A stretch of DNA of 64,000 bases from Patescibacteria group bacterium. GTDB taxonomy: Bacteria; Patescibacteriota; UBA1384; XYA2-FULL-43-10; 1-14-0-10-43-13. Shown here in pieces: positions 5,520 through 63,504 of this stretch; the first letter of the stretch is position 1, and each line of letters starts with the position of its first letter. The stretch is taken from the NCBI GenBank assembly GCA_041649155.1, contig JBAZNP010000001.1, positions 3,581 to 67,580 of the forward strand, given 5' to 3'. The position numbers and the translations under genes are program-made. Below the pieces are notes generated by a model. The model saw only the letters and a program-made list of their open reading frames with translations, was not told the DNA's origin and did not search any database.

Positions 5520-5527
5520 ATTCTCTC

Positions 5528-5562
5528 GTCATTCCGGACTTGATCCGGAATCTATATAAATA
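5528..5562 (+). repeat. Palindromic MITE-like element, family Q (gtcattccggacttgatccggaatctatataaata)
   Basis: Near-identical copy at 8520-8554, with a compensatory G:C versus A:T pair in the stem. It lies in the divergent RT/avd promoter region. Confidence 0.8.
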
Positions 5563-8517: not shown

Positions 8518-8519
8518 AT

Positions 8520-8586
8520 GTCATTCCAGACTTGATCTGGAATCTATATAAATAGTAGCTGGATCCCGTATCAAGTACGGGATGAC
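8520..8586 (+). repeat. Composite palindromic MITE-like element (modules Q and P, gtcat...atgac termini) in the rpmI-rplT intergenic spacer
   Basis: gtcattccagacttgatctggaatctatataaatagtagctggatcccgtatcaagtacgggatgac holds two hairpins whose loops, cttga and tcaag, are reverse complements. Confidence 0.8.
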
Positions 8587-8607
8587 AACCAATAAAGTGG
8601 AGACACA

Positions 8608-8949: not shown

Positions 8950-9057
8950 CATCCGGTATGGGCTATTTTATCCCGAAGGCACAGCTGAGGGATCTCAATT
9001 AAGATCAATTGAACTAGATATTAAAAAATCCGAGAAAAATCTCGGATTTTTTAATTT

Positions 9058-9128
9058 GTCATCCCCGCGAAGACGGAGATCCACAAAAGAAAATACTATC
9101 AGTAGATTCCCGCCTTCGCGGGAATGAC
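9058..9128. repeat. MITE-like element, family D (gtcatccccgcgaag...cttcgcgggaatgac), with terminal inverted repeats
   Basis: Related copies at 10676-10733 and 39063-39170 share the agacgg(a/g)gatccac and agtagattccc segments. Confidence 0.75.
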
Positions 9129-9137
9129 AGTGATTGA

Positions 9138-10631: not shown

Positions 10632-10675
10632 TTTGTTTTCTTTTAAGAATAATATTTAGGATTTATGCATTTGAT

Positions 10676-10733
10676 GTCATCTCCGTGTAGACGGGGATCC
10701 ACTAATAGTAGATTCCCTTCTTCAAGGGAATGA
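10676..10733. repeat. MITE-like element, family D copy
   Basis: gtcatctccgtgtagacggggatccactaatagtagattcccttcttcaagggaatgac. Confidence 0.75.
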
Positions 10734-10866
10734 CAGTGGATGACTTGCAATTTGTAATTATCATCAGAGAGAATCGTTAATCTATCCCTAAATATTATAG
10801 CCTGTTATTGACCAATGTTGTCAAGGATTGCTAAAATATATTAAGAAGAAGTAAAAAAAGGATCAA

Positions 10867-12972: not shown

Positions 12973-15030
12973 ATGATTGCTGAAGTTATTCCAGAAAAAA
13001 GGACCGGTCCGGACAAGGATACTTTTTCATACCTTGTGCCTAACGAAATGCAAAGCCAAATCCAAATCGGCTTTATTGTTGATATTCCCTTTGGGAAAAA
13101 GAATATTAGGGGAGTGATAGCAAGTACACGGGATACAGACAACAGAATACAGATTGATTATGCATTAAAGAAAGTTCAGTCTATTAATTCAGAATTTGTG
13201 ATGCCGGAAAGCTATATTTCAATTGCTAAATGGATCTCAGAATATTATCTATGCTCTTTGGGCGAAGCAATTTCCCTATTTTTGCCACCGGCAATCTCGC
13301 ATTCACGAAAACAAGCATCAAGTATTAAGCATCAAGTATTAAGCAAAAGCATTCAGTTAACGAATGATCAGGAACAAATTTTTCAAAAACTTCTCCATAA
13401 ATTATCAACCATTAACCATAAACCTAGTTTAATTCATGGCGTTACCGGCAGCGGCAAAACCGAGATTTACTTGAAATTGGCTGCTGAAGCATTAAAAAAA
13501 GAAAAACAAGTTATTGTGCTTGTACCAGAAATAATGCTAACGCCCCAAACTATAGAAAAATTTGAAGAGATTTTTCCGGATCAAATTTGCCTAATGCATT
13601 CTAGACTTTCAAAGTCGCAACGTTATGCAACTTATAAACAATTTTATAGTGGTGAAAAACCAATAATAATCGGTCCCCGTTCTGCCTTGTTGGTGCCAAG
13701 TGAAAATATTGGATTAATAATAATTGATGAAGAACAGGAAGATGCTTACAAGCAGGAAAAAGATCCTCGCTATCATGCAGTTGATTTGGCTGAAAAAATC
13801 TCAGAAAAATTAAACGCTTTGCTTGTTTTAGGAACTGCCACACCAAGAGTTGAGACATACCACAAGGCTGTTAATTCCTCCCCTTTAGAAGGGGAGGCTA
13901 GGTGGGGTGGAGGTGAATTCAAACAGAATAGCAGCCTCACCCATCCTCTCCTTACTAAGGAGAGGAGCCATTATGACCTTTTTGAGCTCAATTCCCGATA
14001 TCAAAAATTAATCCTGCCACCCTCAACAGTGGTTGATTTGAAATATGAGATAAAACAGGATAATTTTTCACCAATTTCGCTGGAATTGCAAAAAAACATA
14101 GCTAGAGTGCTCAAGGACAAGCGTCACGCCATCTTGTTCCTAAACCGCCGCGGCATGGCTACTTTTGTATCATGTCGCGAATGCGGGGAAGTAATTAATT
14201 GCCCGCATTGTAACATTCCAATGGTTTATCATATAAATTATGACAAACATATTTTAAACTGCCATCATTGCGATTACAAAACTCCAGTACCGGCTATTTG
14301 CCCCGTCTGCAAAAGTCCAAAAATAAAATTTTTCGGTGCCGGTGTGGATAAAATTGAGAATGAAATTAAAAGGCTATTTCCAAAAGCCAGAATTAGAAAA
14401 ATCGATTCTAAAAGTCTGCAAAATAAAGATGAATATGTGAAATTGTATGAGGAATTAAAAAATGGCAAAATTGACATATTAATCGGGACTCAAATACTGG
14501 CAAAGGGGCTTAATATCGGAACTGTGGATTTAGTCGGCGTAATTTCCGCCGATGTTGGACTTCATATGCCCCATTTTCGCGCAAATGAAAAAACTTTTTC
14601 TCTCCTAACTCAGGTTTCCGGTAGAAGCGGACGAAAAGAAAATTCGGGCATGACAGTTATTCAAACCTACTGGCCCGACTCCAGTTCAATCAAATTTGCA
14701 GCACAGCACAACTATAAAGATTTTTATAAAAGCGAAATTTTGGAACGGAAAAAATTCAACTATCCCCCATTTTGCCATTTAATCAGGGTTGTTTCAGAAG
14801 ATAAGAACAAACAAAAAGCTAAATCAGAATTGGAGAAAATCGCAAAAGAATTAGAACAAAACAAAATAGACTTCATCGGCCCCGGCCCATGTTTTTTAAA
14901 TAGAATTAACAATAAATTCAGATATCACATAATCATCAAGACTAACACTTTGCCCAATCCTAAAATCAGAGAAATATTTAGAACAAACCCATATCTGGTC
15001 TGGGATGTCGATCCAATTGATTTGCTCTAA
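12973..15030 (+). CDS. priA: Primosomal protein N' (PriA helicase)
   Basis: Walker [12 protein letters not shown], a DEEQE box, the CxxC...CxxC zinc-binding region (CRECGEVINCPHC...CHHCDY...CPVC), and a helicase C domain. Confidence 0.9.
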   Translation: MIAEVIPEKRTGPDKDTFSYLVPNEMQSQIQIGFIVDIPFGKKNIRGVIASTRDTDNRIQIDYALKKVQSINSEFVMPESYISIAKWISEYYLCSLGEAISLFLPPAISHSRKQASSIKHQVLSKSIQLTNDQEQIFQKLLHKLSTINHKPSLIHGVTGSGKTEIYLKLAAEALKKEKQVIVLVPEIMLTPQTIEKFEEIFPDQICLMHSRLSKSQRYATYKQFYSGEKPIIIGPRSALLVPSENIGLIIIDEEQEDAYKQEKDPRYHAVDLAEKISEKLNALLVLGTATPRVETYHKAVNSSPLEGEARWGGGEFKQNSSLTHPLLTKERSHYDLFELNSRYQKLILPPSTVVDLKYEIKQDNFSPISLELQKNIARVLKDKRHAILFLNRRGMATFVSCRECGEVINCPHCNIPMVYHINYDKHILNCHHCDYKTPVPAICPVCKSPKIKFFGAGVDKIENEIKRLFPKARIRKIDSKSLQNKDEYVKLYEELKNGKIDILIGTQILAKGLNIGTVDLVGVISADVGLHMPHFRANEKTFSLLTQVSGRSGRKENSGMTVIQTYWPDSSSIKFAAQHNYKDFYKSEILERKKFNYPPFCHLIRVVSEDKNKQKAKSELEKIAKELEQNKIDFIGPGPCFLNRINNKFRYHIIIKTNTLPNPKIREIFRTNPYLVWDVDPIDLL
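13877..13965 (+). repeat. In-frame palindromic insertion within priA (two hairpin modules)
   Basis: cctcccctttagaaggggagg ... cctctccttactaaggagagg encodes SPLEGEARWGGGEFKQNSSLTHPLLTKERS, which interrupts the conserved PriA helicase region. Confidence 0.7.
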
Positions 15031-25683: not shown

Positions 25684-27750
25684 ATGCAAAAGGTACAATT
25701 TAAAATTCATTCGCGTTACTCTCCGACCGGCGACCAACCGGAAGCTATTTTAAAATTATCTGAAAATATTAAGAAAAAAGTTAAACATCAAACCCTCTGG
25801 GGAGTGACCGGAAGCGGCAAAACTTTTACTATTGCCAATGTTATAGAAAAAACTCAAAAGCCGACCCTTGTCATTGCCCATAATAAAACTCTGGCTGCTC
25901 AGCTTGCTGATGAATTCAGACAATTCTTTCCAGAAAATGCAGTTCATTATTTTGTTTCATATTATGACTATTACCAACCAGAAGCATATATTCCTCATTC
26001 CGACACTTATATCGAAAAAGATTCTTCTATAAATGATGAAATTGATCGCCTCCGACATGCCGCGACTCATGCTCTTCTAACTAGAAGCGATGTCATCATT
26101 GTAGCTTCGGTCTCTTGTATTTATGGTATAGGTTCGCCTGAATTTTACAGAGCGGAAAATTTTACATTCAAGGTCGGGGAGAAAATTGAAAGAGATTATT
26201 TTTTGCACCAGTTAAATAATCTGCAGTTCAACCGCAATGACATCGAATTAAAAAGAGGCACGTATCGCCTTCATGGAGATACTTTGGAAATTTTTCCCGC
26301 TTACGAGACAAACACTGTAAAGGTAGAATTTTTTGGAGATAGTGTTGAAAAAATTATTGAAACTGACTGGATAACCGGCAAACAGGTAAAACAGCTTGAA
26401 TCGTTTGAAGTATTTCCGGCGAAGCACTTTATTACACCAGAAAACTTACAAAAAGAAGCAATAAAAAACATCAAGAAAGATCTTGAAGTTAGGGTAAATA
26501 GCCTAAAAAAGGCAGACAAATTGCTTGAAACCCAAAGGATCGAGCAGAGAACAAACTTTGACTTGGAAATGATTGAACAAACTGGATCTTGCTCCGGCAT
26601 TGAAAATTATTCAAGATATTTTGACGGACGAAAGCCAGGCATTCCGCCGACAACCCTTATTGATTATTTCCCTGACGATTTTTTAATGGTGATTGATGAA
26701 TCACACATAACTGTTCCACAAATCGGCGCCATGTATGCAGGAGACCGGTCAAGAAAAGAAAAACTTGTTGATTACGGTTTCAGACTTCCATCCGCTTTTG
26801 ACAATAGGCCATTTAGATTTGATGAATTTTACCACAAAATAAATCAGGTAATTTTCACGTCAGCAACCCCAAATGATTTTGAGTTAAGAAAAAGCTCTAG
26901 TGAGAATGTCATTTCGACCCATCCCGAGCCCACCGCTGGGTGGATCGAGGGAGGCGAGAAATCCCATCGCAATGCCGATAAACCTCAACCATATGATGGA
27001 GTTGTGAAACAATTCATAAGACCAACAGGCCTTCTTGATCCAAAGATTGAAATTAAAAAAACCAAAGGTCAAATAAATGATTTGATTGAAGAAATTAATA
27101 AAAAAGTAGTCAAAAATCAAAGGGTGCTAGTTACAACTCTCACTAAAAAAATGGCTGAAGCCCTGACAGATCATTTATTAGATCACAAAATTAAAGTGGC
27201 CTATATTCACTCTGACGTCGAGACGCTTGAACGTACTGAAATTTTGCACTCTTTGCGCTTGGGCGAATATGACGTTTTAATCGGAATCAATCTGCTTCGA
27301 GAAGGTCTTGATTTGCCAGAAGTTTCACTTGTTGCCATACTAGATGCTGATAAAGAAGGCTTTTTGCGAAGCAGAACCTCCCTGATCCAAACCATCGGTC
27401 GGGCAGCACGACATGTTGAAGGCAGAGTCATTATGTATGCCGATGTCATGACAGAATCGATGAAAATTGCAATTAACGAAACAAATATCAGAAGAGAAAT
27501 GCAAGAAAAATATAATAAAGATCACAACATCACGCCCAAAAGCACAGTGAGAAAACTTGAGCCCAAAGAAATTAAGGAAGAAAAAGAACAGCTTGAGATT
27601 GATCTGTCATTTAAAAAACTTCCAAAATCAGAAAAGAAAAGTGTTATTTCTGAGTTAAATATTCAGATGAAAAAAGCAGCGCAGCAGTTAGAGTTTGAAC
27701 ATGCTGCCCGCCTAAGAGATCAGATCACAAAACTTGAGAGTATGATATAA
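25684..27750 (+). CDS. uvrB: Excinuclease ABC subunit B
   Basis: [15 protein letters not shown] Walker A, helicase motifs and a UvrB/UvrC interaction C-terminus. It carries a ~25 aa insertion from a palindromic element. Confidence 0.9.
26908..26968 (+). repeat. In-frame palindromic element, family C, inside uvrB
   Basis: gtcatttcgacccatcccgagcccaccgctgggtggatcgagggaggcgagaaatcccatc encodes [21 protein letters not shown] second copy at 29706-29767 differs only by 5 transitions. Confidence 0.8.
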
Positions 27751-29085: not shown

Positions 29086-30246
29086 ATGAAGTACTTTGTT
29101 AAAGTCTATGGCTGCCAATATAACGAATGGGATGCAGCCAGAATAAGCTACATGTTAAAAAGCATCGGCTTGATTGAATCGTCCGAAAAGGATGCCGATA
29201 TTATTTTTGCATTGTCTTGCTCAGTTCGCAAAAGTGCTGTTGACCGCATAATGGGAATGGTCAAAAATTGGCAAGGCAAAAAGGTCGTCATTACAGGCTG
29301 CGTTCTTCCAAATGATAAACCAAAATATTTAAAAAAGAACGTCATTCTTTGGGATAATAAAAAGCCGGAAGATTTGAAAGATATTCTCCCACACTGTCAT
29401 TCTGAGCAAAGCGAAGAATCTCAAGATCATTCAGCTACGCCTCAAGATGACAAAATTAGCAAACTATTAAACAGCGGCAATTCCTCCTCCGCCTATCTCC
29501 CAATAATGATAGGCTGCAATAATTTTTGCTCTTATTGCGCCGTCCCATACACCAGAGGACGCGAAGAATCCAGACCCTTTAATGAAATCATGAGTGATTT
29601 CAAAAAAATGGTTGAAAAGGGATACAAAGAAATAATGCTCTTAGGCCAAAACGTAAATAGCTACAGAATTCAGAACGCAGATAACAGAATACAGCAAAAC
29701 AAAGCTGTCATTTCGACCCATTCCGAGCCCACCGTTGGGTGGATTGAGGAAGGCGAGAAATCCCATCACGATAAGTCTGGCTTTGCCATACTACTAGAAA
29801 CCTTAGATAAAATCCCAGGTGATTTCATGATTTCATTTACTTCAAACCATCCAAAAGATATGACTGATGACATTATTACTGCAGTTAAAAATTTACCAAA
29901 AGTGAAGAAAGAAATTCACCTGCCGCTTCAATCCGGAAGCAATGAAGTTTTAAAAGCAATGAACCGACCCTATACCATAGAGAAATATTTAGAACTAATC
30001 GAAAAAATAAAGAAAGAAATTCCGACTGTTTCGATTACAACCGACATTATTGTTGGTTTTCCGAACGAAACGGAAGAAAATTTTCGAAAAACCGTGGAAA
30101 TATTCAAAAGAATCAACTTCAAATCTGCCTACATAAATAAGTACTCTCCCCGTTCCGGAACAGCCGCCTTCAAACTCGGCGACCCAATCCTTTGGACAGA
30201 AAAACAACGTCGCTGGAAAATATTGAATGATATTGCGAATAAATAA
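29086..30246 (+). CDS. MiaB/RimO-family radical-SAM methylthiotransferase (no obvious TRAM domain)
   Basis: MTTase N-domain and the radical SAM CNNFCSYCAVPYTRGRE (CxxxCxxC). It contains two in-frame palindromic-element insertions. Confidence 0.7.
   Translation: MKYFVKVYGCQYNEWDAARISYMLKSIGLIESSEKDADIIFALSCSVRKSAVDRIMGMVKNWQGKKVVITGCVLPNDKPKYLKKNVILWDNKKPEDLKDILPHCHSEQSEESQDHSATPQDDKISKLLNSGNSSSAYLPIMIGCNNFCSYCAVPYTRGREESRPFNEIMSDFKKMVEKGYKEIMLLGQNVNSYRIQNADNRIQQNKAVISTHSEPTVGWIEEGEKSHHDKSGFAILLETLDKIPGDFMISFTSNHPKDMTDDIITAVKNLPKVKKEIHLPLQSGSNEVLKAMNRPYTIEKYLELIEKIKKEIPTVSITTDIIVGFPNETEENFRKTVEIFKRINFKSAYINKYSPRSGTAAFKLGDPILWTEKQRRWKILNDIANK
29396..29420 (+). repeat. In-frame small palindromic element (gtcattctgagcaaagcgaagaatc) inside the miaB-like gene
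   Basis: Encodes the HCHSEQSEES insertion. Same family as the element at 17640. Confidence 0.65.
29706..29767 (+). repeat. In-frame palindromic element, family C, inside the miaB-like gene
   Basis: gtcatttcgacccattccgagcccaccgttgggtggattgaggaaggcgagaaatcccatc encodes VISTHSEPTVGWIEEGEKSH, in the same frame as the uvrB copy. Confidence 0.8.
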
Positions 30247-30977: not shown

Positions 30978-31017
30978 ATGTGATAATTTTTGCGCGGCCA
31001 CGATATTTTTATCACAT
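30978..31017. repeat. 40 bp palindromic repeat, copy 2, about 30 bp upstream of the Cas2-like gene start
   Basis: Perfect 40/40 identity with copy 1. Candidate operator or recombination site. Confidence 0.9.
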
Positions 31018-31047
31018 TTTTACTCTCTCAAGTACAAGTAATTAAAA

Positions 31048-32283: not shown

Positions 32284-32340
32284 ATTCCCTCCCTGCTCCG
32301 TTTGATGCCCCAAAGGGGCTATCCAACTGGGGCTACACTA

Positions 32341-34071: not shown

Positions 34072-34080
34072 ATTTCTCCT

Positions 34081-34335
34081 TTACCCTGTGAAATACGATT
34101 TGAGTCGATTTCGCAAGAATTGTTTACCTCTAAAACTTTTTAAATATTTTTCTCTATGTGTTGCGTCTTTTTGACAAACGCAAGCTTCATAATATATTAA
34201 TTTCAATGGCCTACGATCTTTAGTTGAATCAACCAACCCATTCTCATGTTTCTCAAATCGTAATTTTAAATTTTTCGTATAACCTGTATACATTTTACCA
34301 TCATTTTGCGAATGTAGGATATAGACATAAAACAT
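34081..34335 (-). CDS. GIY-YIG nuclease superfamily protein (standalone, 84 aa)
   Basis: FYVYILHSQNDGKMYTGYTKNLKLRFEKH is a GIY-YIG motif. Confidence 0.7.
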   Translation of the reverse strand: MFYVYILHSQNDGKMYTGYTKNLKLRFEKHENGLVDSTKDRRPLKLIYYEACVCQKDATHREKYLKSFRGKQFLRNRLKSYFTG

Positions 34336-34382
34336 GACTTTTATCTAATTTAATAAAAATTTAAAATATTTCACAGGGTGAA

Positions 34383-34440
34383 CAAAAAAAGACCGTTTGT
34401 TTCGAGATCCCGATGCAACATCGGGAGGTTCCATCTCGAT
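34383..34440 (-). terminator. Rho-independent terminator downstream of coaE on the minus strand
   Basis: Hairpin tcgagat(gg)aacctcccgatgttgcatcgggatctcga followed on the minus strand by aaacaaacggtcttttttt. The preceding ~120 nt are GC-rich and structured. Confidence 0.55.
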
Positions 34441-34560
34441 TTGGTCTTAATTTACTCGTTCGCTCGAGTCTGCGCTGGTTCTCCGGGGCGGTACTCCCAT
34501 CGACAAATCAGATATTATGTTTTTATATTACCATTTTTAAAATTAATGTAAATATGCGGA

Positions 34561-35810: not shown

Positions 35811-35812
35811 AG

Positions 35813-36382
35813 CTATCCTTTTTTAAAGTTTTTATAATATTCGCTAGCCGTCGGATCAACTTGATTTTGATATTTGCTACCAATTTTCCTTGAACCATAG
35901 GGTGTTTCGCATGGAGTACATAAATTCATAAAAGAAAGTTGACCTATTTTCATTCCAGGATAAAGAGCTATGGGAAGATTTGCCACATTAGAAAGCTCTA
36001 GAGTGATTGTGCCTTTAAATCCAGGATCAACGTATCCAGCTGTCGAGTGAATAAGAAGACCCAATCTCCCAAGTGAACTTTTTCCTTCTATGCGAGCAAC
36101 AACTGTTTTATCTAATCCTATTACTTCTAGAGTAGAGCCAAGAATAAATTCTCCGGGATGTAGAATAAATGGTGAGCCATTTTTTAGTTCAACCAAAGAA
36201 GTTAAATCAAGCTGTTTTTCCCTCGGATCTATAATAGAATATTTATAATTATTAAAAACTCTAAACTTATTAGATAATCTAACGTCATAGCTTGATGGTT
36301 GAATCATGGAATCGTCTTCGGGAGTGATTATAATTTTTTTATCTTCAATTGCTTTTTTGATATCATTATCGCTGAAAACCAT
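35813..36382 (-). CDS. dcd: dCTP deaminase
   Basis: MVFSDNDIKKAIEDKKIIITPEDDSMIQPSSYDVRLS... and GYVDPGFKG. Dcd-type dUTPase fold. Confidence 0.85.
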   Translation of the reverse strand: MVFSDNDIKKAIEDKKIIITPEDDSMIQPSSYDVRLSNKFRVFNNYKYSIIDPREKQLDLTSLVELKNGSPFILHPGEFILGSTLEVIGLDKTVVARIEGKSSLGRLGLLIHSTAGYVDPGFKGTITLELSNVANLPIALYPGMKIGQLSFMNLCTPCETPYGSRKIGSKYQNQVDPTASEYYKNFKKG

Positions 36383-36391
36383 TTCTCTCCT

Positions 36392-37648
36392 TTATTTATT
36401 AATTCCGGGTACTGGAAACTTTGTACACATTTCACGTATTTCTTCTTTTATTTCTGCCAATTTTTCGTCATTATCTTTGTTTTCATAAACCAGATTAAAT
36501 AGCTCCGCGATTCTTTGCATTTCAACCAAACCCATACCGCGAGTAGTTAATGCGGCGACCCCAACTCTAATTCCAGAAGTGACTGCCGGAGGAAGAGGAT
36601 CGCCTGGGATTGCATTTTTATTTACTGTGATTTCTGCTTTGCCAAGCGCATCTTCAAATTCTTTTCCAGTAATATTTTTACTTCGTAAATCAACAAGACA
36701 TAAGTGATTGTCGGTTCCGCCACTAACCAAATTGAAATCAAAAGAGCTTAAAGTTTCAGCAAAGCAACTCATATTTTGAACAATATTTTTTGCGTATTCT
36801 TTAAAACTTGGCTTTAAAGCTTCACCAAAAGCTACTGCTTTTGCAGCAATAATATGCTCATGGGGACCGCCCTGTAACCCTGGAAATACCGCCTTATCAA
36901 TCGCTTTGGCATATTTTTCTTTGCAAATAATCATTGCGCCTCGTGGCCCTCGTAGTGTTTTGTGAGTTGTTGTCATCACAACATCAACAAACGGAAAAGG
37001 GCTTGGATGAACTCCGCCAATGATCAGGCCTGATATATGAGAAATGTCAGCCATGTGAATCGCGCCCACTTCGTCAGCAATTTCCTGAAATTTTTTGAAA
37101 TCAATTTGGCGAGGATAAGCCGTAGCGCCTGATACGATAATTTTTGGCTTATGTTTTTTTGCTAACTCTCTAACTTCATCATAGTTAATTCTTTGATCAT
37201 CTTCGCGAACACTATATTGTATGAAATTGTATGCACGACCGGAAAAATTAACTTTATGGCCATGAGTTAAATGACCCCCTTGAGCCAAGCTCATTCCCAT
37301 TAAAGTGTCTCCAAATTCTGCCAATGCAAAATAGATGGCAATATTAGCAGGAGAACCGGAGTATGGTTGAACATTGGCGTGCCATTCTGGCTCAGATAAG
37401 CCAAAAAGTTTCAATGCTCGTTCGCAAGCTAGAGTTTCCACCTTGTCAGTCCATTCTTGTCCGCCATAATATCTTTTTCCTGGATACCCCTCTGAATATT
37501 TATTGGTAAAAATAGAGCCCATCAATTCTAATACTGCTTCCGAAACATAATTCTCTGAGGCTATCATTTCCAAGCCTTCCTTCTGCCTCTTTTTTTCACC
37601 CTCTAAAATTTTAGATACTTCTTTATCACTTATTTTTACTGTGCTCAT
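36392..37648 (-). CDS. glyA: Serine hydroxymethyltransferase
   Basis: [15 protein letters not shown]-lysine region, GLQGGPHEH and YSGSPAN blocks. Confidence 0.9.
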
Positions 37649-37703
37649 TCCGCTCCTTCCTTAAAATCAACAACCTACTATTCTATTTATTATTATTGTT
37701 GTT

Positions 37704-37788
37704 GTCATCCCAGACTGCAATCTTGAGATCTGGGATCCAGAAATTTTTACTACGAACTTCCTAGATTCCAGATCAAGTCTGGAATGAC
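37704..37788. repeat. Composite palindromic MITE-like element (modules P and Q), intergenic copy
   Basis: gtcatcccagactgcaatcttgagatctgggatccag...attccagatcaagtctggaatgac. Inverted relative to 8520. An inverted, diverged copy is inserted in rsmH. Confidence 0.8.
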
Positions 37789-37808
37789 AATGTATTTCAG
37801 ATCATTAT

Positions 37809-38900
37809 TTACCACCTTAGAGTTTGGTCTGCTTGATCAAGATGTTGCTGCTCGGTGTCAATGTTTAATTTTGATGTGACAATATTATAAATCTCTTTTT
37901 CAATATCCCCGATTTCTTTTTCGCCGTCAATAATAACGAAACGATTACTTTCATCTTTTGCTAAAAGTTCATAAGTCGCTAAAGTTTTTTCTAATTTTTT
38001 CTCTTCCTCAAAAAGTTCAAAACCATCTCGGGACTTTCCTATGCGATCAATGCAAACTTCCGGCGGAACTTTAATAAAAAAAGTAATATCGGGCAAAATA
38101 AAATGCTTGTTAATTTCTCTTAGCCATTCTATATCAGCGCCAATTGAACCGAAAGCAATACTAGAAAAAAGGTAGCGGTCAGTAATTACAACATCCCCTT
38201 TATCTAAATTTGGGATGATGGTATGCTTTAAATGATGTGATCGATCGGCAGCATACAAAAGTTGGAATCCTTCTGCTGGAATCGTCCATTCTTTTGTTAA
38301 AACCCCTCGAATCAATCCACCAATCAGATTATTGGTTGGTTCTTTAGTTGTAGAAACTGTCAGGCCATTCCCCCGTAGATTTTTTGCTAATAAATCCACC
38401 TGGGTTGTGCTACCAGATCCGTCAAGACCTTCGAACGCAATAAATAAGCCTTTTTGACTACATTCCTTGGCTGTATGCTTTTTTCCAGTAGAGCCAAATC
38501 CGTTCATACCACGATCCGAAGCTGATAATTCTTCAACTATTTGAATATTTGGATGCTCGATCTTTTGAACTAACAGTTGAGCTACCTTGTCTCCCTTTTC
38601 TATTATATAATCCTCTTGACCAAGATTAAGAAGACTAACATGATATTCTCCTCGATAACCTGCGTCCATTACGCCGCCCATGGTTTTAATTGAATGTTTT
38701 GTTGCTAATCCGCTTTTGTCCCATATTAAAGCTACATGATCATCAGGAATTTCTATAGCCAGTCCAGTTTTAATACTGAGAACTTCGTTTGGTTTTAGTA
38801 CACAATTTTCGATACTAAACAAATCCATTCCCGCATCATTATGATGTGCAAATTCTGGAACAATTGCGTCAGGATGTAATTTTTTAACTTTTAAGTCCAT
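37809..38900 (-). CDS. dut-tmk: Bifunctional dUTP diphosphatase / thymidylate kinase (Dut-Tmk fusion)
   Basis: Dut motifs DAGMDL, GVMDAGYRGEY and RGMNGFGSTGK. Tmk P-loop FEGLDGSGSTTQ and a lid region. One continuous 363 aa ORF. Confidence 0.8.
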   Translation of the reverse strand: MDLKVKKLHPDAIVPEFAHHNDAGMDLFSIENCVLKPNEVLSIKTGLAIEIPDDHVALIWDKSGLATKHSIKTMGGVMDAGYRGEYHVSLLNLGQEDYIIEKGDKVAQLLVQKIEHPNIQIVEELSASDRGMNGFGSTGKKHTAKECSQKGLFIAFEGLDGSGSTTQVDLLAKNLRGNGLTVSTTKEPTNNLIGGLIRGVLTKEWTIPAEGFQLLYAADRSHHLKHTIIPNLDKGDVVITDRYLFSSIAFGSIGADIEWLREINKHFILPDITFFIKVPPEVCIDRIGKSRDGFELFEEEKKLEKTLATYELLAKDESNRFVIIDGEKEIGDIEKEIYNIVTSKLNIDTEQQHLDQADQTLRW

Positions 38901-39926: not shown

Positions 39927-40003
39927 GCGCCCATAGCTCAGCTGGTTAGAGCGTCGCATTGACATTGCGGAGGTCAGAGGTTCGAGTCCCCTTGGGCGCA
40001 CCA
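39927..40003 (+). tRNA. tRNA-Val (anticodon GAC) with encoded CCA
   Basis: Cloverleaf: acceptor gcgccca/tgggcgc, D-arm gctcagctggttagagc, anticodon stem tcgca/tgcga with loop ttGACat, T-arm agagg ttcgagt cccct, then a cca. Confidence 0.9.
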
Positions 40004-42025: not shown

Positions 42026-45000
42026 TCATTTAAAAATACCCATTATCCAGCTAAGGGATTTTTGTAATGAGTCAACGATAATATCAATTACAGAACTTTG
42101 TGTTTTACCTGTAATGGTAGTTGTGTCATCGGAATATCCAGCATTACCAGCATTATCTTTTGAAATAGCTCTTAGATGATAAATTTTATTTGATTCTAGC
42201 TCCGAAACAATTACAACGTGAGAAGTTGAAAGCACTGCATCTTCTTTACTTTTGTTTTTGTATTCGCTGCCCGATATACCTTGTTCATATTCTACCTGTG
42301 AAGTACCTGGCTCATCCGTTTCCCAAGTCACCACCACTTGCGCTTTCTGAGATGTGCCAAAACCAGAAGATTTGACTTCAATGGTCATGTTAGATATTTT
42401 TGGAGAACGAGAGTCTTTTGGCGTATCAATACTTGTTGTAAATGGAGTCTCTATTTCATTTCCATACTTATCCCTGCCTGTTACTATAAATTTATAGGTA
42501 CTCATGTCAGCCAAATCTGGAATTATGAGGTCATGGTTAATAGTATAATCAGCGGATGAACGTGATAGTTTTTGGCCAGAAGATGATTCGTAGTTTATAA
42601 TCGTTGTCGTCTCTACATTTGTTTCCCAAGAAAATCTGTAGGTTGTAGTTGGAGCAGTAGTATCCTGATCTGACCGGACTCCATTTGTTATAGCTGGCAT
42701 TGTCAAAGTATTAAAATCATTTTTAGCGCCAAAATCCATTTTATTACCATCTACATCAGAGCCAAGAATATAGTAATAATATTTTGAAGAATGATCTAAT
42801 CCCGATAAATTAATAGTATGGTTTTGAATATATCCAGTTTCAACTTCTTCCACCTTCCCTGCTCCTTTATCAATTTCGTCCTTATCTTTGCTGTAAACAA
42901 TAGAGGTAGTTGTTGGAATTGAGGTTGTATAACTGATTGTTGCAGAATTTAAAGATATATTATCCACAGGAGCAACAGAAACAATAGGTCTTGCCAATGT
43001 ACGAAAACTCATTTTTTCACTTCGACCCTCGTTTCCATTTTCATCAACCCAAACTGCTTGATAGTAATATAGCGCCCCGCCAGGCTGCAACCCAGTGATC
43101 GTTACGCTATGTTGATCAGTCAAACTCAATTGACCCTTGGTTTCACCGCCATTTTCCTGTCCAATTTTATTTGGATCGGTTCCGTATTCAACAAAGCTAG
43201 AAGCTTTATGAACAACTTTTGGATCGACATCTGTTGTTTCCCAAGAAATCGTGGCGGAATAAGCCTTTTCAACTACATCTAGCTTTTCATTTTTTATAAT
43301 AGGCGCATTACTAAATTTGCCAGTTGGCACTATTTGAACTGTACTAGAAGCAACAGATGTTTGACCGGCATTGTCCTCAGATTCAACATTATAGAAATAT
43401 GCTTGCGAAGAAAGACTTGTATCAGCAAAAGTCGTGCTAGTGGTAGTTCCTGCTTGACTAAAATTTATTCCATCAGTCGACCTATAAACGTTGTAGCCCA
43501 TAAATCCGGCACCTTTATCTTGAGGCTCACTCCATGTTAGAAACACTTTATAACTGGCGAGATCACGATTTGAACCATCAACTGCAGAAACTGCCGTCGG
43601 CGTACCCGGAGCCGGAGTAATCGCCCAAAAAGACGCTGAAGCATAAATATCGTAATTTATATTTCCAGCTTCATCTTTAGCAACGACATATATTGTATTT
43701 TGTCCTTGACGTGTTGCATAGGAATCGGCAGCAAGTGATAGTGTTGTCGACAATGTAATATTTGTAGAGTTGGGAGTCTCGTTTATACTGTAATAATATT
43801 TCAATGCCGATTCGTTTCCAGAAAAAGTTGCTGGCTTGGACCACGAAAAAGAAAAATTATTCGATGCTGACGGATTCTGTTCTGACGATTCAGGGGAAGC
43901 GGTTAAATTTTGCGGAGCCGATGGCGCAGAATCATTATGATAAAAAGTGGCTTGAACGGGGCTGCTTTCATTGCCGGCGTTATCGATAGTTTTTAAGTAA
44001 AATATATTTGACCCTTCTTGATACCAGGCGCCATTTAAAGTTACTTGGAGTTCGGTTGTTATGTTTGACCAATTAGCATAATCTCCCCCGCCAGTTTTAT
44101 ATTTATAACCGCTTAAGCCAGAACCAGCATCAGAACCAGCCGGCCACAAGAAAGTGTAATCATTTACCGAAGAGTATCCAGATGGGGAAGATGAAACATA
44201 CGAAGGATTAGTCGGCAAGGTGTTTTCGTATTGGTATTTAAATGCCTTGCTTGAAACTGTCGGATCCCAAATCGTGCTATTGCCAAAGTTATCTTTTATT
44301 TTAACTCTCAAATAATATGTCGATCCTGAAACCAAAGCTCCAGCTACGGTTGCATTTGGCGATTCGGTCCAATAAACTGACCCGTCAGCATTTAGAACAC
44401 CGGAAGTTTCTTCTGGATCAGCAGTATTACTCGTACCAAAATAAACATAATAACCATCTATCCCGTTAGTATCGCTATCACCGCTCCATGAAAAATATGG
44501 ATTGGCGTGATTATGCCAATGATCTTCATTCGAAATAATTTCATCTCCTCCAGAAGCAGACAAAGAAGTTAAATTTGTGGGAGAACTGGGATTTACTAAA
44601 TCACTGGAAACATCAAAAATCTTTAACTTGTCAATCAAACCGCTAAATGTATCAAAACCTCCGCCCGGTACGGAACCAACATAAAAATCATCACCATAAT
44701 TTGGGGCCGGTGCAGACCAACTTGTTGTAGTGCTAGTAGTCACACCATCAACAGTTAATGACAATTCTCCGGTTGATTGCTTGTAACTAGCAGAAATAGA
44801 ATGCCAGCTATCGCGAGTCCAATCAAGAGTCGCGCTTTCTAAATATGTAGAATTATTCGGGGTGCTTGAGTTATATGAAGGATAAAATCTAACTTTTCCT
44901 CTAAACGGATCGATCTCTAACCTTAAACTGTTTGTCGAATTGCTTGACTGTAAAAGAACTTGGGATGGAGGAGTTCCATCATATGTTTCCCAAAAGGAAT

Positions 45001-47440
45001 CCATATCTGTTTTTATAATACTACGATTTCCGGCATTAGCTACATAAACGAATCCGTCATCATAATAAATTTCTTGTGGACCATTAAATTTTCCTTCTCC
45101 ACTCGCGCCGAATATGCCATAAGTTGTCCATCCGGTCCATGAATCGTCAAGTTTGGTTTTAACGATCCTATTATGGCCATCTGAAATATAGAAATACTGA
45201 TCGACGTTATCATACGCGATCCCTTTGGGTGTAGAAAACTTGCCAATGGCGTCGCGGGTGCCGGATGTGCCATAAGTTGTCCATCCGGTCCATGAACCGT
45301 CAAGTTTGGTTTTAACGATTCTAGCATTACTGCTGTCTACAATATAAAGATACGGATTTGCCGGATCATCACTTGGAACCGCCATGATAGCACTGGCACC
45401 TGAGAAGTTGCCAACACCGGTGCCGCTAGACCCCATTGATAGCAGACCTGTCCCATCAGATTTAATTCGAGCAATACTAGTACCAAGAGTATAGTAAATA
45501 TAATCATTAACAGAATCATAATAAATTTTACTCACAGAGCCAGCGACATTGATAGTTTTTTTTGAATTTGACCCATCTAATTTCAGAATAGTAATAGTTG
45601 AAACACTTGAATACTTTTCAGCTACAAACAAATTTTGACTTGCTTCGTCATAATAAAATGATTCCAGAGTAAAATTAGGAGAATTAGTAGAGTAGGCGCT
45701 CCAATCAGTACCGTCGAAATTTGTTTCAATTATTTTATCACCATCGACATTAGTAGAAAATGTATTACCAATAAACATTTTCCCAGATACATTATCATAA
45801 TAAAACTCTGTTACTCCATTGAAGGGGCGACTAGCACTCAAAGACCTTGGGCTTTCATCAGATCCCACCGCATGCCAACCCGATATTGATGTAGTATCTT
45901 CTCCAGTCCAACCCAACACGGTATGAGAAGCGTCATTATCAAAGACTTGAATACGATTATTTGTAGTATCGGCAACATAGATTTTGTTGTTTGAGTCAAG
46001 AGTCACTCCAGAGGGATGAGCAAAATTGTAATCGCCAGAACCGGTCACTCCTACTTTGCCAGAGCCGACATCATGCCAGCCAGCATCAGTGCTGCTCTTC
46101 CCCATCCAGCCCAACATGGTGTGAGAAGCGTCATTATCAAAGACTTGAATACGATTATTTGTATACTCGGCAACATAGATCCTGTTGTTTGAATCAATAG
46201 CCACTCCACGAGGAGCATTAAAATTATAATCGCCAGAACCGCTTGTTCCTATTTTACCGGAGCCCAGCGCATGCCAGCCAGCATCATTAGCGCTCTTTCC
46301 CATCCAGCCCAACATGGTGTGAGAAGCGTCATTGTCAAAGACTTGAATACGATGGTTCGAATACTCGGCAACATAAATCTTGTTGTTTGAATCAAGAGCT
46401 ATTGCATAGGGAAGATTGAAATTGTAATCGCCAGAACCGGTCACTCCTACTTTGCCAGAGCCGACATCATACCAGCCAGCATCAGTGCTACTCTTTCCTA
46501 TCCAGCCCAACATGGTGTGAGAAGCGTCATTGTCGTAGACTTGAATACGATAATTCCCATAATCGGCAACATAGAGTCTGTTGTTTGAATCAAGAGCCAC
46601 TCCTTTAGGACTATTAAAACTGTAATCGCCAGAGCCGATCGCTCCTGTCCCGTCGGAGCCAATATCATGCCAGCCAGCATAAGCGCTGCTCTTTCCAATC
46701 CAACCCAATGGAGAACCTGCATTGTCAAAAATTTGAATTCTATGATTAGTACTGTCGGCAACATAAATATTGCCGCTACTGTCTACAGTTACGCCCGATG
46801 GAACATTTAACTGTCCGTCCCCAGTTCCAGATAAACCAAAACTACGCCAGCCCGTAACACCGTCGGGTTTTACGACTACAATACGATTATTACTAGTATC
46901 GGCAATATACAAAAGATCGGTACCTGCATGATAAAAAACGGTCTGAGGAGAATTAAAGCCTCCATCCCAATCCCCCTCGATCACTCCGGGATATTTTGCC
47001 TGTAAAGAAATCATGCCTTCGGAATCACTCAAGTTGCTCGATGCTGAATATTTTAAAGTTTTACCATTTGTTAACTGCGCCGCTTGCCCCATTTCATTAT
47101 AGCCAGGACTTACCAAACTAGCCGGAGTACCATCGTTGGAAGCGGCAGTAGAACCAAGCCCGCTATCTGCGTTCAAACTGCCTGCATTATAATTGGCGGA
47201 AAAACCATTTGCCGCCTTAGATAACCTCACATCAACGAATAAACTACTCAATATCAAACCTATAATAGTAGTAGCGCATAAACCAAGTGTCGCAAAATGC
47301 ACTTTCTTGTGATGAGGATGATGATGCCAGTCATGGTATTTTTCTGATTTAGAACACAAAAATTCATGCGCTTTTGTAAGCGGTTTAATCTTTGGAGTCG
47401 AACAATTAGGACAATTGCAATAAGTCAAAACCTCCTCCAC
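42026..47440 (-). CDS. Giant (1804 aa) type II membrane surface protein with an NHL-repeat beta-propeller and FN3-like and LamG-like domains
   Basis: N-terminal CNCPNCS...C zinc ribbon, His-rich HDWHHHPHH, then a TM segment. At least six near-identical NHL repeats (YVADSTNHRIQIFD, YVAEYSNHRIQVFD, ...). LamG-like LDWTRDSWHSISASY. Confidence 0.7.
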   Translation of the reverse strand: MEEVLTYCNCPNCSTPKIKPLTKAHEFLCSKSEKYHDWHHHPHHKKVHFATLGLCATTIIGLILSSLFVDVRLSKAANGFSANYNAGSLNADSGLGSTAASNDGTPASLVSPGYNEMGQAAQLTNGKTLKYSASSNLSDSEGMISLQAKYPGVIEGDWDGGFNSPQTVFYHAGTDLLYIADTSNNRIVVVKPDGVTGWRSFGLSGTGDGQLNVPSGVTVDSSGNIYVADSTNHRIQIFDNAGSPLGWIGKSSAYAGWHDIGSDGTGAIGSGDYSFNSPKGVALDSNNRLYVADYGNYRIQVYDNDASHTMLGWIGKSSTDAGWYDVGSGKVGVTGSGDYNFNLPYAIALDSNNKIYVAEYSNHRIQVFDNDASHTMLGWMGKSANDAGWHALGSGKIGTSGSGDYNFNAPRGVAIDSNNRIYVAEYTNNRIQVFDNDASHTMLGWMGKSSTDAGWHDVGSGKVGVTGSGDYNFAHPSGVTLDSNNKIYVADTTNNRIQVFDNDASHTVLGWTGEDTTSISGWHAVGSDESPRSLSASRPFNGVTEFYYDNVSGKMFIGNTFSTNVDGDKIIETNFDGTDWSAYSTNSPNFTLESFYYDEASQNLFVAEKYSSVSTITILKLDGSNSKKTINVAGSVSKIYYDSVNDYIYYTLGTSIARIKSDGTGLLSMGSSGTGVGNFSGASAIMAVPSDDPANPYLYIVDSSNARIVKTKLDGSWTGWTTYGTSGTRDAIGKFSTPKGIAYDNVDQYFYISDGHNRIVKTKLDDSWTGWTTYGIFGASGEGKFNGPQEIYYDDGFVYVANAGNRSIIKTDMDSFWETYDGTPPSQVLLQSSNSTNSLRLEIDPFRGKVRFYPSYNSSTPNNSTYLESATLDWTRDSWHSISASYKQSTGELSLTVDGVTTSTTTSWSAPAPNYGDDFYVGSVPGGGFDTFSGLIDKLKIFDVSSDLVNPSSPTNLTSLSASGGDEIISNEDHWHNHANPYFSWSGDSDTNGIDGYYVYFGTSNTADPEETSGVLNADGSVYWTESPNATVAGALVSGSTYYLRVKIKDNFGNSTIWDPTVSSKAFKYQYENTLPTNPSYVSSSPSGYSSVNDYTFLWPAGSDAGSGLSGYKYKTGGGDYANWSNITTELQVTLNGAWYQEGSNIFYLKTIDNAGNESSPVQATFYHNDSAPSAPQNLTASPESSEQNPSASNNFSFSWSKPATFSGNESALKYYYSINETPNSTNITLSTTLSLAADSYATRQGQNTIYVVAKDEAGNINYDIYASASFWAITPAPGTPTAVSAVDGSNRDLASYKVFLTWSEPQDKGAGFMGYNVYRSTDGINFSQAGTTTSTTFADTSLSSQAYFYNVESEDNAGQTSVASSTVQIVPTGKFSNAPIIKNEKLDVVEKAYSATISWETTDVDPKVVHKASSFVEYGTDPNKIGQENGGETKGQLSLTDQHSVTITGLQPGGALYYYQAVWVDENGNEGRSEKMSFRTLARPIVSVAPVDNISLNSATISYTTSIPTTTSIVYSKDKDEIDKGAGKVEEVETGYIQNHTINLSGLDHSSKYYYYILGSDVDGNKMDFGAKNDFNTLTMPAITNGVRSDQDTTAPTTTYRFSWETNVETTTIINYESSSGQKLSRSSADYTINHDLIIPDLADMSTYKFIVTGRDKYGNEIETPFTTSIDTPKDSRSPKISNMTIEVKSSGFGTSQKAQVVVTWETDEPGTSQVEYEQGISGSEYKNKSKEDAVLSTSHVVIVSELESNKIYHLRAISKDNAGNAGYSDDTTTITGKTQSSVIDIIVDSLQKSLSWIMGIFK

Positions 47441-49095: not shown

Positions 49096-49802
49096 TGGTG
49101 GAGGTGGCGGGTAATGCTCCCGCGTCCAAAAGGTTAAGAACACATCGTCTACAAGTTTAGTTCCGGTTGAAAATTTAAATATTGGATAAAATCGGAACCA
49201 AAAACCAATATTCTACCTCTAGTAAATCTTAAGATAAATTGCTAGAGAATCAATAAATCAGCAACTCGAATTATGACACCCGTTAATCTTCAGTCGAGTA
49301 GCCAAAGAACGGATGGTTGTCGCAATTAAGCAGCAACTGGCGCAAAGCTAGGCATGCTGAAAGCAGCTTTTACTTTGCTAACAAATGAATTTGCATTTGT
49401 AATTTTTGAAAGTTTATAAAGTGGCTTTCACACTTACTTGCAGATATGTTTTTAAAGTCCTTCTGTCGAAGCTAATACACCCCCACAACAAGCATAATTC
49501 TATAACATTTATCTCCTCACGTCAAGATCGTCTTCGGGGACGGTTCTAAATTGAATACAGATTTAGTGATAATTTAATATTTACTAATCTTTTCTTAATA
49601 TTCCTCGCCGCATAGTGAAAATAAGAAAAAAATATAATGCAAAAAAGAGATTTAAATATCACCAAAATAATAAATAGTCACCTTATCGCCAATCATGAGA
49701 TCATTTTAGAACCGTCCCCAAGATGGTCATTCAAAATAAACGCATTGAAACTAATGCATAGCACAAATATTCATTTTTTCAATACAGAATTAACAATTTT
49801 TA

Positions 49803-62112: not shown

Positions 62113-62196
62113 ACTTTTTTTCATCGTCATTGCGAGGTCGCCGTGGCGACCGTGGCAATATTTAGACAGATATTATTCAATATGTAAGTTACTCTA

Positions 62197-62269: not shown

Positions 62270-62405
62270 GCGCGTAGATGGTATAAGGAGGCGAAATAGG
62301 ATCCCCCTCCCAAAGGATCGGAGACTAATAGCTGATACGATAGCTACGTTTATACCATCAACGGGCCATGGCCTCACCTGATCTTTCGGGTGAGGCCATT
62401 TTTTC
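62270..62405 (+). ncRNA. Candidate small structured RNA or leader ending in a strong intrinsic terminator, upstream of rsmH
   Basis: Long-range pairing gatggtataa...ttataccatc encloses inner hairpins. It ends with ggcctcacctgatctttcgggtgaggcc followed by attttttct. The true rsmH start (MKHIPVL) is at 62444. Confidence 0.3.
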
Positions 62406-62443
62406 TAGAAAAAAAATGAATTTTATGCTAAGATTATTAATCA

Positions 62444-63504
62444 TGAAACATATCCCCGTTTTAAAAAATGAAGTTTTGGAAGCGTTCAGCTATCTTAAAG
62501 ACGTCAAGAATAGCTTTTTTGTTGATGGTACGCTCGGATTAGCAGGCCACAGCTTGGCCATAGCCGAACAATTTAAAATTCAAAAAATAAAATTTAAAAT
62601 TATGGGTATCGATAAAGATAAAACTGCTTTGAGGTTAGCAAAAGAAAATATTGAAAATACAGGCTTTATAAATAATTTTTTATTTGTGCATGATGATTTT
62701 AAAAATATCGAAGAAATTTTAAAAAACTTGCGTCATTCCAGACCTGATCTGGAATCCAGAAATACCACAGGCAAACCAACTTCCTGGATCCCGGATCTCA
62801 AGCTTACAGTCCGTGATGATGAGTCTGATAATGGTAGCTTGATGATCAACGGAGCGCTAATTGATCTTGGTGTCTCATCGATGCAATTAGACGACAAAAA
62901 AAGAGGGTTTTCTTTTTCCGATCCAGAGGCAGCTTTGGACATGAGAATGGATCAAACTCAGGAGTTAAGTGCTTTTGATGTTTTAAATTACTATCCGCAA
63001 CTAAAACTGGAAAAAATATTCAAAGAATATGGAGAAGAAAAATTTTATAAAAATATCGCAAAAAATATTTGTAAAGACAGAAAGATCAAACCAATTGAAA
63101 AGGTCGGTGAACTCTTGGACATCTTAGAAATATCGATCCCAACCAAAATAAGAAAAACCAGTAAAAAACATTTTGCAACCGGAACTTTCAGAGCATTGCG
63201 GCTTGAGGTCAATCAGGAATTAACAAAACTTGATACGACACTTATGAATTTTATAAATGCTCTCAAAAAAGGTTCAAGGTTAGCTGTTATATCTTTTCAC
63301 TCAACTGAAGATAGAATCGTAAAGGAAACCTTTAGAAAAGCTGAAAATCCATGTGTCTGTCCTCCCTTAGCTCCAGTTTGCACATGTGAAAATGTTTCTG
63401 CCGTCAAGATAATAACCAAAAAGCCGATTATTCCGTCAGATCAGGAAATAGCAGAAAATCCTCGTTCTAGAAGCGCTAAATTAAGAATAATTGAAAAACT
63501 ATAA
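62444..63504 (+). CDS. rsmH: 16S rRNA (cytosine1402-N4)-methyltransferase RsmH (ORF open from 62368)
   Basis: MKHIPVLKNEVLEAF, DGTLGLAGHS, DLGVSSMQLDD and a C-terminal RsmH domain. It contains a ~30 aa in-frame palindromic-element insertion. Confidence 0.85.
62732..62820 (+). repeat. In-frame composite palindromic element (modules Q and P) inside rsmH
   Basis: gtcattccagacctgatctggaatccag...ggatcccggatctcaagcttacagtccgtgatgat is the inverted homolog of 37704-37788. It encodes HSRPDLESRNTTGKPTSWIPDLKLTVRDD. Confidence 0.75.

Follow-up and report, generated by a model that had tools for sequence, protein, structure and literature searches.

The rsmH gene in the 64,000 nt stretch of Patescibacteria DNA analysed here (hereafter the window), which encodes a 16S rRNA m4C1402 methyltransferase, contains 30 extra codons that are very probably a decaying, in-frame copy of a dimeric repeat of the CGTC/TGTC-tagged repetitive extragenic palindrome (REP) type, tolerated in a permissive loop of the protein. 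The element consists of two hairpin units, termed P and Q, arranged as an inverted dimer with the tags pointing outwards (Table 1). A first-pass annotation of this DNA had proposed that the gene carries an in-frame copy of a composite P/Q palindrome also found between genes; this is upheld, with the boundaries refined to 62731-62820, giving a stop-free insert of 90 nt, a multiple of three. The DNA reads CGTCATTCCAGACCTGATCTGGAATCCAGAAATACCACAGGCAAACCAACTTCCTGGATCCCGGATCTCAAGCTTACAGTCCGTGATGAT, and the translation across it runs ...ILKNL-RHSRPDLESRNTTGKPTSWIPDLKLTVRDD-ESDNGSLMINGALIDLGVSS..., the same peptide as originally given. If the insert is expressed, peptides such as NTTGKPTSWIPDLK would be expected.

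The P unit is intact in rsmH, forming a perfect 8 bp stem when the DNA is folded. Its module, GTCATTCCAGACYTGATCTGGAAT, has exact pattern matches in the window at 8520, 37765 (complementary strand) and 62732, plus a further match with two mismatches at 5528, against an expectation of 0.00 in shuffled sequence. The Q module, GGATCCCRGATCTCAAG, is found in the window only at 37722 (complementary strand) and 62786, the sites of the two composite elements. The insert had been described as an inverted, diverged homologue of the intergenic element at 37704-37788, and it is indeed collinear with the reverse complement of that element, here delimited as 37703-37789, with which it shares both modules. 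By hand count these two copies are roughly 80% identical over the element, and the rsmH copy is about 87% identical to another on a metagenome contig (L125). That the insert is an ordinary lineage-specific loop expansion, resembling the repeat by chance, is exceedingly improbable: nothing more than the low complexity of short hairpins speaks for it, whereas the 24-mer match is exact where none is expected by chance, P, spacer and Q are homologous, in the same order, to those of two other copies, and the Q module is restricted to these elements.

A scan of one genome per species identified the exact P 24-mer in at least 120 genome stretches, belonging to Patescibacteria, Dehalococcoidia, Campylobacterota, Ignavibacteriota, Bacteroidota, Alpha- and Gammaproteobacteria, Rickettsiales, Spirochaetes, Nitrospirota and others; most of these have a second, inverted hairpin ending GGATGAC(A) 10-70 nt away. 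As this 24-mer is shared with intergenic copies in the window and with genomes from many phyla, the insert is a copy of dispersed repetitive DNA, and not a native RsmH loop. Interpretation as an intein or intron was dropped, given a length of only 30 residues, the lack of splicing motifs and the identity of the DNA as a repeat.

The rsmH copy is degraded at its Q end, where the stem contains a mismatch and the outer tag reads GATGAT in place of the GATGAC of the intact form. In a three-way alignment, L125 carries the intact Q form, ATCCCGGA...TCCGGGATGAC, relative to which both the stem and the tag in rsmH are mutated; the rsmH copy is thus a decayed member of the L125-type subfamily, not a variant kept by compensatory change. 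As DNA, it folds no better than shuffled sequences (z = -0.97). The same is seen across the window, where the fold z-scores of intergenic dimers range from -3.1 to -6.7 and those of genic copies from -0.4 to -1.0: the genic copies have decayed, losing the fold stability of the intergenic ones.

It is very unlikely that a repeat-induced chimera in the metagenome-assembled genome (MAG) has placed an intergenic repeat within rsmH. Short dispersed repeats are classic points of MAG misassembly, but the insert is exactly 30 codons long and stop-free, its flanks continue the RsmH alignment without loss, and inserts at the same codon are also present in relatives that were assembled independently. In addition, the copy has diverged from every other copy, and so was not pasted in from any of them.

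The gene itself, an open reading frame (ORF) of 353 residues, matches PF01795 (the MraW/RsmH family) end to end (E 1.4e-101), and its product is 100% identical to P0001, an NCBI protein named RsmH from a 798,787 bp contig of a Patescibacteria group bacterium. The NCBI gene call begins at 62425 and is 359 aa long; the start of a longer listed ORF, at 62368, is probably spurious, as it falls inside a terminator-like hairpin. In an alignment of 22 RsmH homologues the invariant motifs of the family are all intact despite the insert, and a scan of the gene found no terminator-like site created by it. The region upstream of rsmH (62270-62400) is strongly structured, ending in a 14 bp terminator-like hairpin and T-run (62368-62399), and had no match above noise in an Rfam search.

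Table 1. Tagged and untagged repeat elements in the 64 kb window, with rsmH and the candidate partner nuclease gene
Feature	Position	Strand	Details
rsmH (16S rRNA m4C1402 methyltransferase)	62443..63504	+	start at MKHIPVL chosen by homology
In-frame insert in rsmH, inverted dimer of CGTC-tagged hairpins	62731..62820	+	90 nt, 30 codons, peptide RHSRPDLESRNTTGKPTSWIPDLKLTVRDD
P unit of rsmH insert, intact	62731..62758	+	tag CGTC (62731-34), 8-bp stem ATTCCAGA (62735-42), loop CCTGA (62743-47), stem TCTGGAAT (62748-55), tail CCA (62756-58)
Q unit of rsmH insert, inverted, decayed	62785..62821	+	tail TGG, stem ATCCCGGA (62788-95), 14-nt loop, stem TCCGTGAT (62810-17) with one mismatch, tag GATG in place of GACG
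Intergenic sister element, TGTCAT...ATGACA	37703..37789	-	87 nt, lying between ORFs 36392-37648 and 37809-38900; P and Q hairpins both perfect; folds as DNA at -17.7 kcal/mol (z -5.0 against shuffles)
Intergenic dimer, P unit shared with rsmH, different second unit (GGATCCCGTATCAAGTACGGGATGACA)	8519..8587	+	between ORFs 8335-8517 and 8608-8949; z -5.2
Solo P-type hairpin, CCGGAC variant	5527..5552	+	between reverse transcriptase and bAvd genes
Intergenic dimer, dRS3/NTS type (ATTCCCGCGAAGGCGGGAAT)	9057..9129	+	z -6.7
Intergenic dimer of tagged hairpins	10675..10735	+	z -3.1
Solo CGTC-tagged hairpin (CGTCATTGCGAGGTCGCC...GGCGACCGTGGCAAT)	62125..62160	+	directly after the stop codon of the upstream ORF
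In-frame insert in uvrB, TGTCATTTCGACC family	26896..26998	+	folds no better than shuffles, z -0.55
Insert 1 in MiaB/RimO-like gene	29395..29452	+	peptide CHSEQSEESQDHSATPQDD; DNA TGTCATTCTGAGC...GATGACA
Insert 2 in MiaB/RimO-like gene	29706..29772	+	peptide VISTHSEPTVGWIEEGEKSH; z -0.43
In-frame insert in priA, untagged hairpin family (CCTCCCCTT..AAGGGGAGG)	13877..13966	+	peptide SPLEGEARWGGG...THPLLTKER
Single-domain GIY-YIG protein gene	34081..34335	-	84 aa; PF01541, E 1.5e-15; candidate Ssn-type partner nuclease

The alignment of RsmH homologues bears out the expectation that the insert is not a conserved part of the protein. Three relatives (P0005, P0006 and P0007), with 74-76% identity over aligned residues, lack an insert; in these, the helix ...ILxxL is joined to the strand xNGALIDLGVSS by a plain linker of 4-5 residues (K-I-D-E). 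P0003 (82% identity) has only a remnant of 12 nt at the site, CAG GAT GAC AGA, which looks like a left-over GGATGACA-like terminus. A different element, of 159 nt, is present in P0002 (encoded at locus L124), beginning at the identical codon with the same tag and ending GAT GAC; at the left junction the window and L124 both read AAA AAC TTG then YGT CAT TCC AGA, their right ends are equivalent (GAT GAY), and their interiors are unrelated. RsmH proteins from more distant members of the candidate phyla radiation (CPR) have other peptides in the same loop, such as CHSEQSEES...PQDD, ...ATRDDQ and PHPASPYKGEG; from lineage to lineage, the peptides found here have unrelated sequences and lengths of anywhere from 4 to 57 residues. 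There is no counterpart of the insert in solved RsmH or METTL15 structures. A second variable spot in CPR RsmH proteins lies after the AIAxxxK helix (alignment columns 155-190), where several lineages have peptides including NKAMPTGRQ, LPRRQTGK, NNPFDSTQGVPIGAHGEQ and SRPVSPSAIRGGKS, which look to be encoded by GC-rich sequence.

A neighbour-joining tree constructed without bootstrapping, and with the insert columns left out, groups the window protein with P0003, then with P0002 and P0004; the site is occupied in all four, and the empty-site clade of P0005-P0007 is their sister. Elsewhere in the tree, occupied and empty states are interspersed. A single ancient insertion in the common ancestor of the window lineage, P0003, P0002 and P0004, followed by conversion or replacement, by partial deletion in P0003 and by extension in P0002, would fit both this distribution and the junctions common to the window and L124. 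There are parallels elsewhere: the MiaB-like proteins of the window and of locus L014, at 41% identity, have different elements at the same two alignment positions, and in Rickettsia, orthologues likewise differ in which of the Rickettsia palindromic elements (RPEs), of the RPE-4, -6 and -7 types, occupies a given site, a pattern for which both a hot spot and a common origin followed by divergence were considered, with no decision between them (PMC3767692). We nevertheless hold a single ancient insertion to be possible but on the doubtful side. The interiors of the window and L124 elements being unrelated tells against it, and the P unit in rsmH is only one base in 24 different from other copies in the same genome, which is difficult to fit with about 20% divergence of the protein, an objection that lifts only if conversion or selection acts on P. 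Recent insertion or conversion is favoured by the near-perfect state of the P unit, common ancestry by the junction shared with P0002.

An AlphaFold2 model of RsmH, built on the alignment of 22 homologues, has a mean predicted local distance difference test score (pLDDT) of 79 and superposes on the structures of the Thermotoga maritima, Thermus thermophilus and Escherichia coli enzymes (1n2x, 1wg8 and 3tka) with a template modelling (TM) score of 0.82 by target length. Residues 100-131, comprising the insert and a diverged linker, have pLDDT values below 50 and lie between helix 86-98 and strand 135-141, which ends in DLGVSS and to whose N-terminal end the insert is joined. The insert is therefore predicted to be a hydrophilic, disordered and solvent-exposed loop of 30 residues. 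In class I methyltransferases, the sheet has the cofactor site on one side and the N-terminal ends of the strands on the other; given this standard topology, the insert would be located away from the S-adenosylmethionine (SAM) binding and catalytic site.

It is improbable that the insert has been exapted as a functional loop, one that positive selection maintains for, say, contact with the 30S subunit or with a partner protein. The expansion of the same loop in many CPR RsmH lineages is in keeping with such a role, as is the recurrence of inserts in replication and repair proteins, both here (uvrB and priA) and in the literature (PMC3733652). However, the varied length and unrelated sequence of the peptides at the site, the predicted disorder of this one, the existence of sister lineages without any insert, and the decay of the DNA copy in the manner of neutral sequence all run counter to it.

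Tagged hairpins are common throughout the window: ten combinations of GTCAT with an 8 bp stem were detected where 0.68 were expected, two of the ten being judged chance hits. Inspection gives a total of twelve repeat elements in the window, five of them inside genes; five intergenic dimers were counted, likewise by eye. The elements have inverted termini, TGTCATYCCAGA...TCTGGRATGACA, with dimers running TGTCAT...ATGACA. Of the 30 reading frames of the intergenic dimers, only about six are without stops, in each case the TGT CAT (C-H-S) frame, which is also the one used by the rsmH copy, the first copy in the MiaB-like gene and the inserts in P0002 and P0028. This is what a survival filter would give, with no design needed. 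A scan for GC-rich islands was too unspecific to add any further hidden inserts in the window.

The five in-frame inserts counted by the first-pass annotation, in rsmH, uvrB, the MiaB-like gene (two) and priA, are all real, but they represent at least three repeat families and the one in priA lacks the GTCAT tag. That the four genes are essential, as the annotation put it, is an assumption. The insert in uvrB contributes about 33 extra residues, falling between residues 404 and 406 of solved UvrB, and its DNA has 91% identity with that of the second insert in the MiaB/RimO-like gene, a member of the UPF0004/radical-SAM family. The untagged family represented in priA also has a further form, CCTCTCCTT..AAGGAGAGG, and encodes peptides such as PLEGEA, PLLTKER and PSPYKGEG; it is found in frame in the RsmH loop of P0004, P0013 and P0014, and in a UvrD gene of Moraniibacteriota (L040). 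The latter, a UvrD/PcrA helicase ORF of about 1130 aa, contains an intein (PF14890, Hint) in addition to two repeat-derived in-frame inserts.

The extent to which tagged hairpins lie within genes was assessed by counting [CT]GTCAT sequences with a stem of at least 8 bp inside long ORFs across the fetched loci, all of which had been picked for containing P, a biased sample in which the bias is equal in both groups compared. Nine of 56 such hairpins were inside long ORFs in CPR loci (8/55 once a chance hairpin is discounted), as were 4/9 in probable CPR loci and 2/83 in other low-GC genomes. The genic share among the loci sampled is thus 15-19% in CPR and about 2% in other low-GC bacteria (Fisher's exact test, p = 0.001 for 12/64 against 2/83; p = 0.014 for the strict set). 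The CPR ORFs containing the P hairpin encode two PMT_2 glycosyltransferases, a MiaB-like protein, a thymidylate kinase and a UvrD-family helicase. A query with a 40 aa insert peptide against a collection of 5.8 billion proteins found no candidate.

These repeats correspond most closely to the CGTC-tagged REPs, families CGTC-1 to -4, described by Di Nocera, De Gregorio and Rocco in 2013, which have an unpaired tag (CGTC, TGTC or CCTC), stems of 8-9 bp in which the first two pairs are A-T and T-A, loops of 4-5 nt and a short unpaired tail that is mostly CCA, and occur mostly as inverted dimers, mostly intergenically and near the ends of ORFs, with a minority inside ORFs (PMC3733652). They include dRS3 of Neisseria and RPE-6 and RPE-4 of R. 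conorii; the intragenic dimers encode 20-30 residues, many being in replication and repair genes such as R. conorii uvrB (PMC3733652). They were reported from five phyla, CPR not among them, and have neither a known dedicated transposase nor an association with RAYT genes (PMC3733652). In the window, the tag is CGTC at 62731-62734 and TGTC at both ends of 37703-37789 and of other dimers, and repetition as inverted dimers is seen within the 64 kb. The P unit fits the published description throughout, from its tag, its 8 bp stem starting AT and its 5 nt loop to its CCA tail and its occurrence in dimers. The Q unit, as found intact in 37703-37789 and L125, agrees in stem, tag and tail; its loop, at 14 nt, differs from the 4-5 nt of CGTC-tagged REPs, and the genic fraction here is far above that of most species listed for them.

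The RPEs described by Ogata et al. (2000, 2002) are, as summarised in later accounts, found in frame in housekeeping genes and encode solvent-exposed peptides (PMC10969869, PMC3767692), and the motif ATGAC is characteristic of RPE-4, -6 and -7 and of the Wolbachia elements, WPE (Matsutani et al. 2013, PMC3767692). The elements studied here resemble them in being in-frame palindromes within housekeeping genes of a small-genome host, in the presence of different elements at the same site of orthologues, and in having GTCAT at the P end, the Q end being ATGAT in rsmH and ATGAC in the sister copies. They differ in host phylum and in length (87-91 bp rather than 100-150 bp). Elements of this kind in CPR or Patescibacteria were not found described in the literature searched, which is not the whole literature. 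Rickettsia, Wolbachia and other bacteria had already provided examples of this kind of element and of its in-frame occurrence; the novelty here lies in the phylum of the host and in how densely the inserts occur.

The Neisseria NTS, CGTCATTCCCGCGMAVGCGGGAATCYRG, which contains dRS3 and has been generalised as Ssn-related motifs (SRMs), is bound and cut, as single-stranded DNA (ssDNA) only, by the small GIY-YIG nuclease SsnA, with both activities depending critically on the 5' CGTCAT and on the C that follows the palindrome (Chenal et al. 2025, PMC11893778). An NTS-ssnA-NTS arrangement resembles an insertion sequence (IS), and in N. meningitidis only 2% of NTS lie within genes (PMC11893778), a point of difference from the elements here. 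Points of similarity are hairpins with a 5' CGTCAT and a C immediately after the palindrome, small single-domain GIY-YIG genes, a hairpin-gene-hairpin unit in a CPR genome, a distribution across many phyla and enrichment in symbionts. The SRM string HGTCWYN0-2YYVSBRHN0-5WNVSBRGN0-2RNCYNB matches three hairpins in the window, at 8559-8587 (-; the second unit of the dimer at 8519-8587), 9102-9129 (-) and 10675-10702 (+).

Other known systems are less similar. The GTAG REPs and REPINs associated with RAYTs are likewise short tagged hairpins that form mosaics, have inverted doublets as the likely mobile unit and cause no target site duplication, but every copy here has a CGTC or TGTC tag and not GTAG. 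Inverted termini are shared with miniature inverted-repeat transposable elements; unlike these, the present repeats have no duplications by inspection and no IS with the same ends. Over its full length, the intergenic element at 37703-37789 can be aligned with the model of Rfam family RF02625 (WsnRNA46, Wolbachia sRNA 46) as GUGUCAUCC...CUGGGAUCCAGAAA...CUGGAUUCCAG...GGAUGACAC, but at 34.1 bits (E 1e-5, over 37686-37807) it falls short of the gathering score of 65.3 and is therefore no member; the rsmH copy does not match RF02625.

A potential partner for these repeats is the 84 aa GIY-YIG protein encoded in the window, the nearest solved relatives of which are the UPF0213 proteins 1zg2 and 1ywl. 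The region upstream of its gene (34380-34520) is GC-rich and apparently structured (...gggagtaccgccccggagaaccagcgcag...cctcccgatgttgcatcgggatctcg...). A Parcubacteria locus (L107, 4070-4440) contains a TGTCAT-tagged hairpin, a 100 aa GIY-YIG gene and an inverted hairpin ending ATGACA, the gene being bracketed by TGTCATCCCCGACTTGATCGGGGATCC and GGATTCCCGTTTCCACGGGAATGACA and its product being 38% identical to the window protein (E 3e-12). This unit may be an autonomous form of the tagged-hairpin dimers, and is the only candidate for a parent element; judged by their sequence, the P/Q dimers look like the same unit minus its ORF. In the relative encoding P0002, a cassette at 3349-3707 of L124, between rsmH and queH, consists of a 90 aa GIY-YIG gene with 23 nt flanking direct repeats (acttctcgacaagctcgaagaat); the syntenic loci L121 and L122 lack it.

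These observations suggest a route by which the rsmH insert could have arisen. A copy of the palindromic repeat would have come to lie in the segment of rsmH encoding the loop between helix 86-98 and the DLGVSS strand. The most likely means of spread is recognition and nicking of the hairpin, as ssDNA, by a small GIY-YIG nuclease of the Ssn type, followed by copying or repair, with hairpin-ORF-hairpin units as the autonomous form and ORF-less dimers as non-autonomous derivatives. The copy would then persist by passing a survival filter, being 90 nt long with a stop-free frame (xGT CAT TCC, encoding C/R-H-S...) in a disordered surface loop; it is the combination of 30 codons, an open frame and a permissive position that would allow it to be tolerated.

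Several points weigh against this account. No target site duplication was apparent by inspection around any copy examined, nor was there an empty site at near-identical sequence, so the insertion event is deduced by comparing proteins that share at most 82% identity. Transcription and translation of the insert are assumed here; both have been shown for RPEs in Rickettsia. Mobilisation by an Ssn-type GIY-YIG nuclease is inferred: what has been demonstrated for Ssn is cleavage of ssDNA and a limiting effect on transformation, not the mobilisation of repeats (PMC11893778). No hairpins flank the GIY-YIG gene in the window, there being no tagged hairpin from 18790 to 37704, and neither the P nor the Q unit matches the SRM string. 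NCBIfam includes models of RPE domains; the insert peptides and the other frames had no match in NCBIfam or Pfam at E<=10.

Elsewhere in the window, a diversity-generating retroelement occupies 4443-7565, with a reverse transcriptase gene (4443-5519, -; PF00078), a bAvd gene (5580-5927, +; PF22296) and a pair of 137 nt repeats that are 85% identical (6030-6166 and 6605-6741). The second of these repeats lies at the 3' end of a GC-rich 320 aa ORF (6603-7565, -) with no Pfam match, presumably the variable target. Two internally palindromic direct repeats of 43 nt (ATGTGATAA...TTATCACAT), at 30283-30325 and 30975-31017 and 98% identical, bracket a 208 aa ORF (30320-30946, -), and may represent a cassette or a pair of regulatory sites. 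Between a 1108 aa ORF and uvrB is about 1 kb without a long ORF (24648-25683), including GC-rich islands at 24789-24959 and 25415-25489, in which no Rfam family reached its gathering score. An ORF of 1804 aa (42026-47440, -) with 198 nt tandem repeats (45902-46795) probably encodes a large repetitive surface protein. At Rfam gathering thresholds, the whole window contains only a tmRNA (49096-49484, -; 113.7 bits) and one tRNA, tRNA-Val(GAC) at 39927-40003.

For a long time, in-frame palindromes within protein coding genes were regarded as peculiar to Rickettsia and Wolbachia. In the window, repeats of the same tagged class do likewise in Patescibacteria, and at high density, with five inserts in four housekeeping genes in 64 kb. 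This lends support to the view that bacteria with small genomes and a dependence on hosts can tolerate insertions of this type, and offers genome annotators an explanation for the odd, low-complexity loops seen in CPR proteins and for short ORFs that are spurious. It is also conceivable, although unlikely, that genic tagged hairpins act as landing pads, at which cleavage of the extruded ssDNA hairpin by an Ssn-type nuclease, and then template switching or gene conversion from another copy, repeatedly rewrite the same loops in a site-directed manner. Were this true, CPR, like Rickettsia, would have hot-spot loops in housekeeping proteins, such as the helix-strand loop of RsmH and the two fixed sites of the MiaB-like protein, that turn over far faster than the rest. 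The CPR also offer a second, phylogenetically independent system in which to study how CGTC-tagged repeats spread, and whether Ssn ssDNA nucleases mobilise them.

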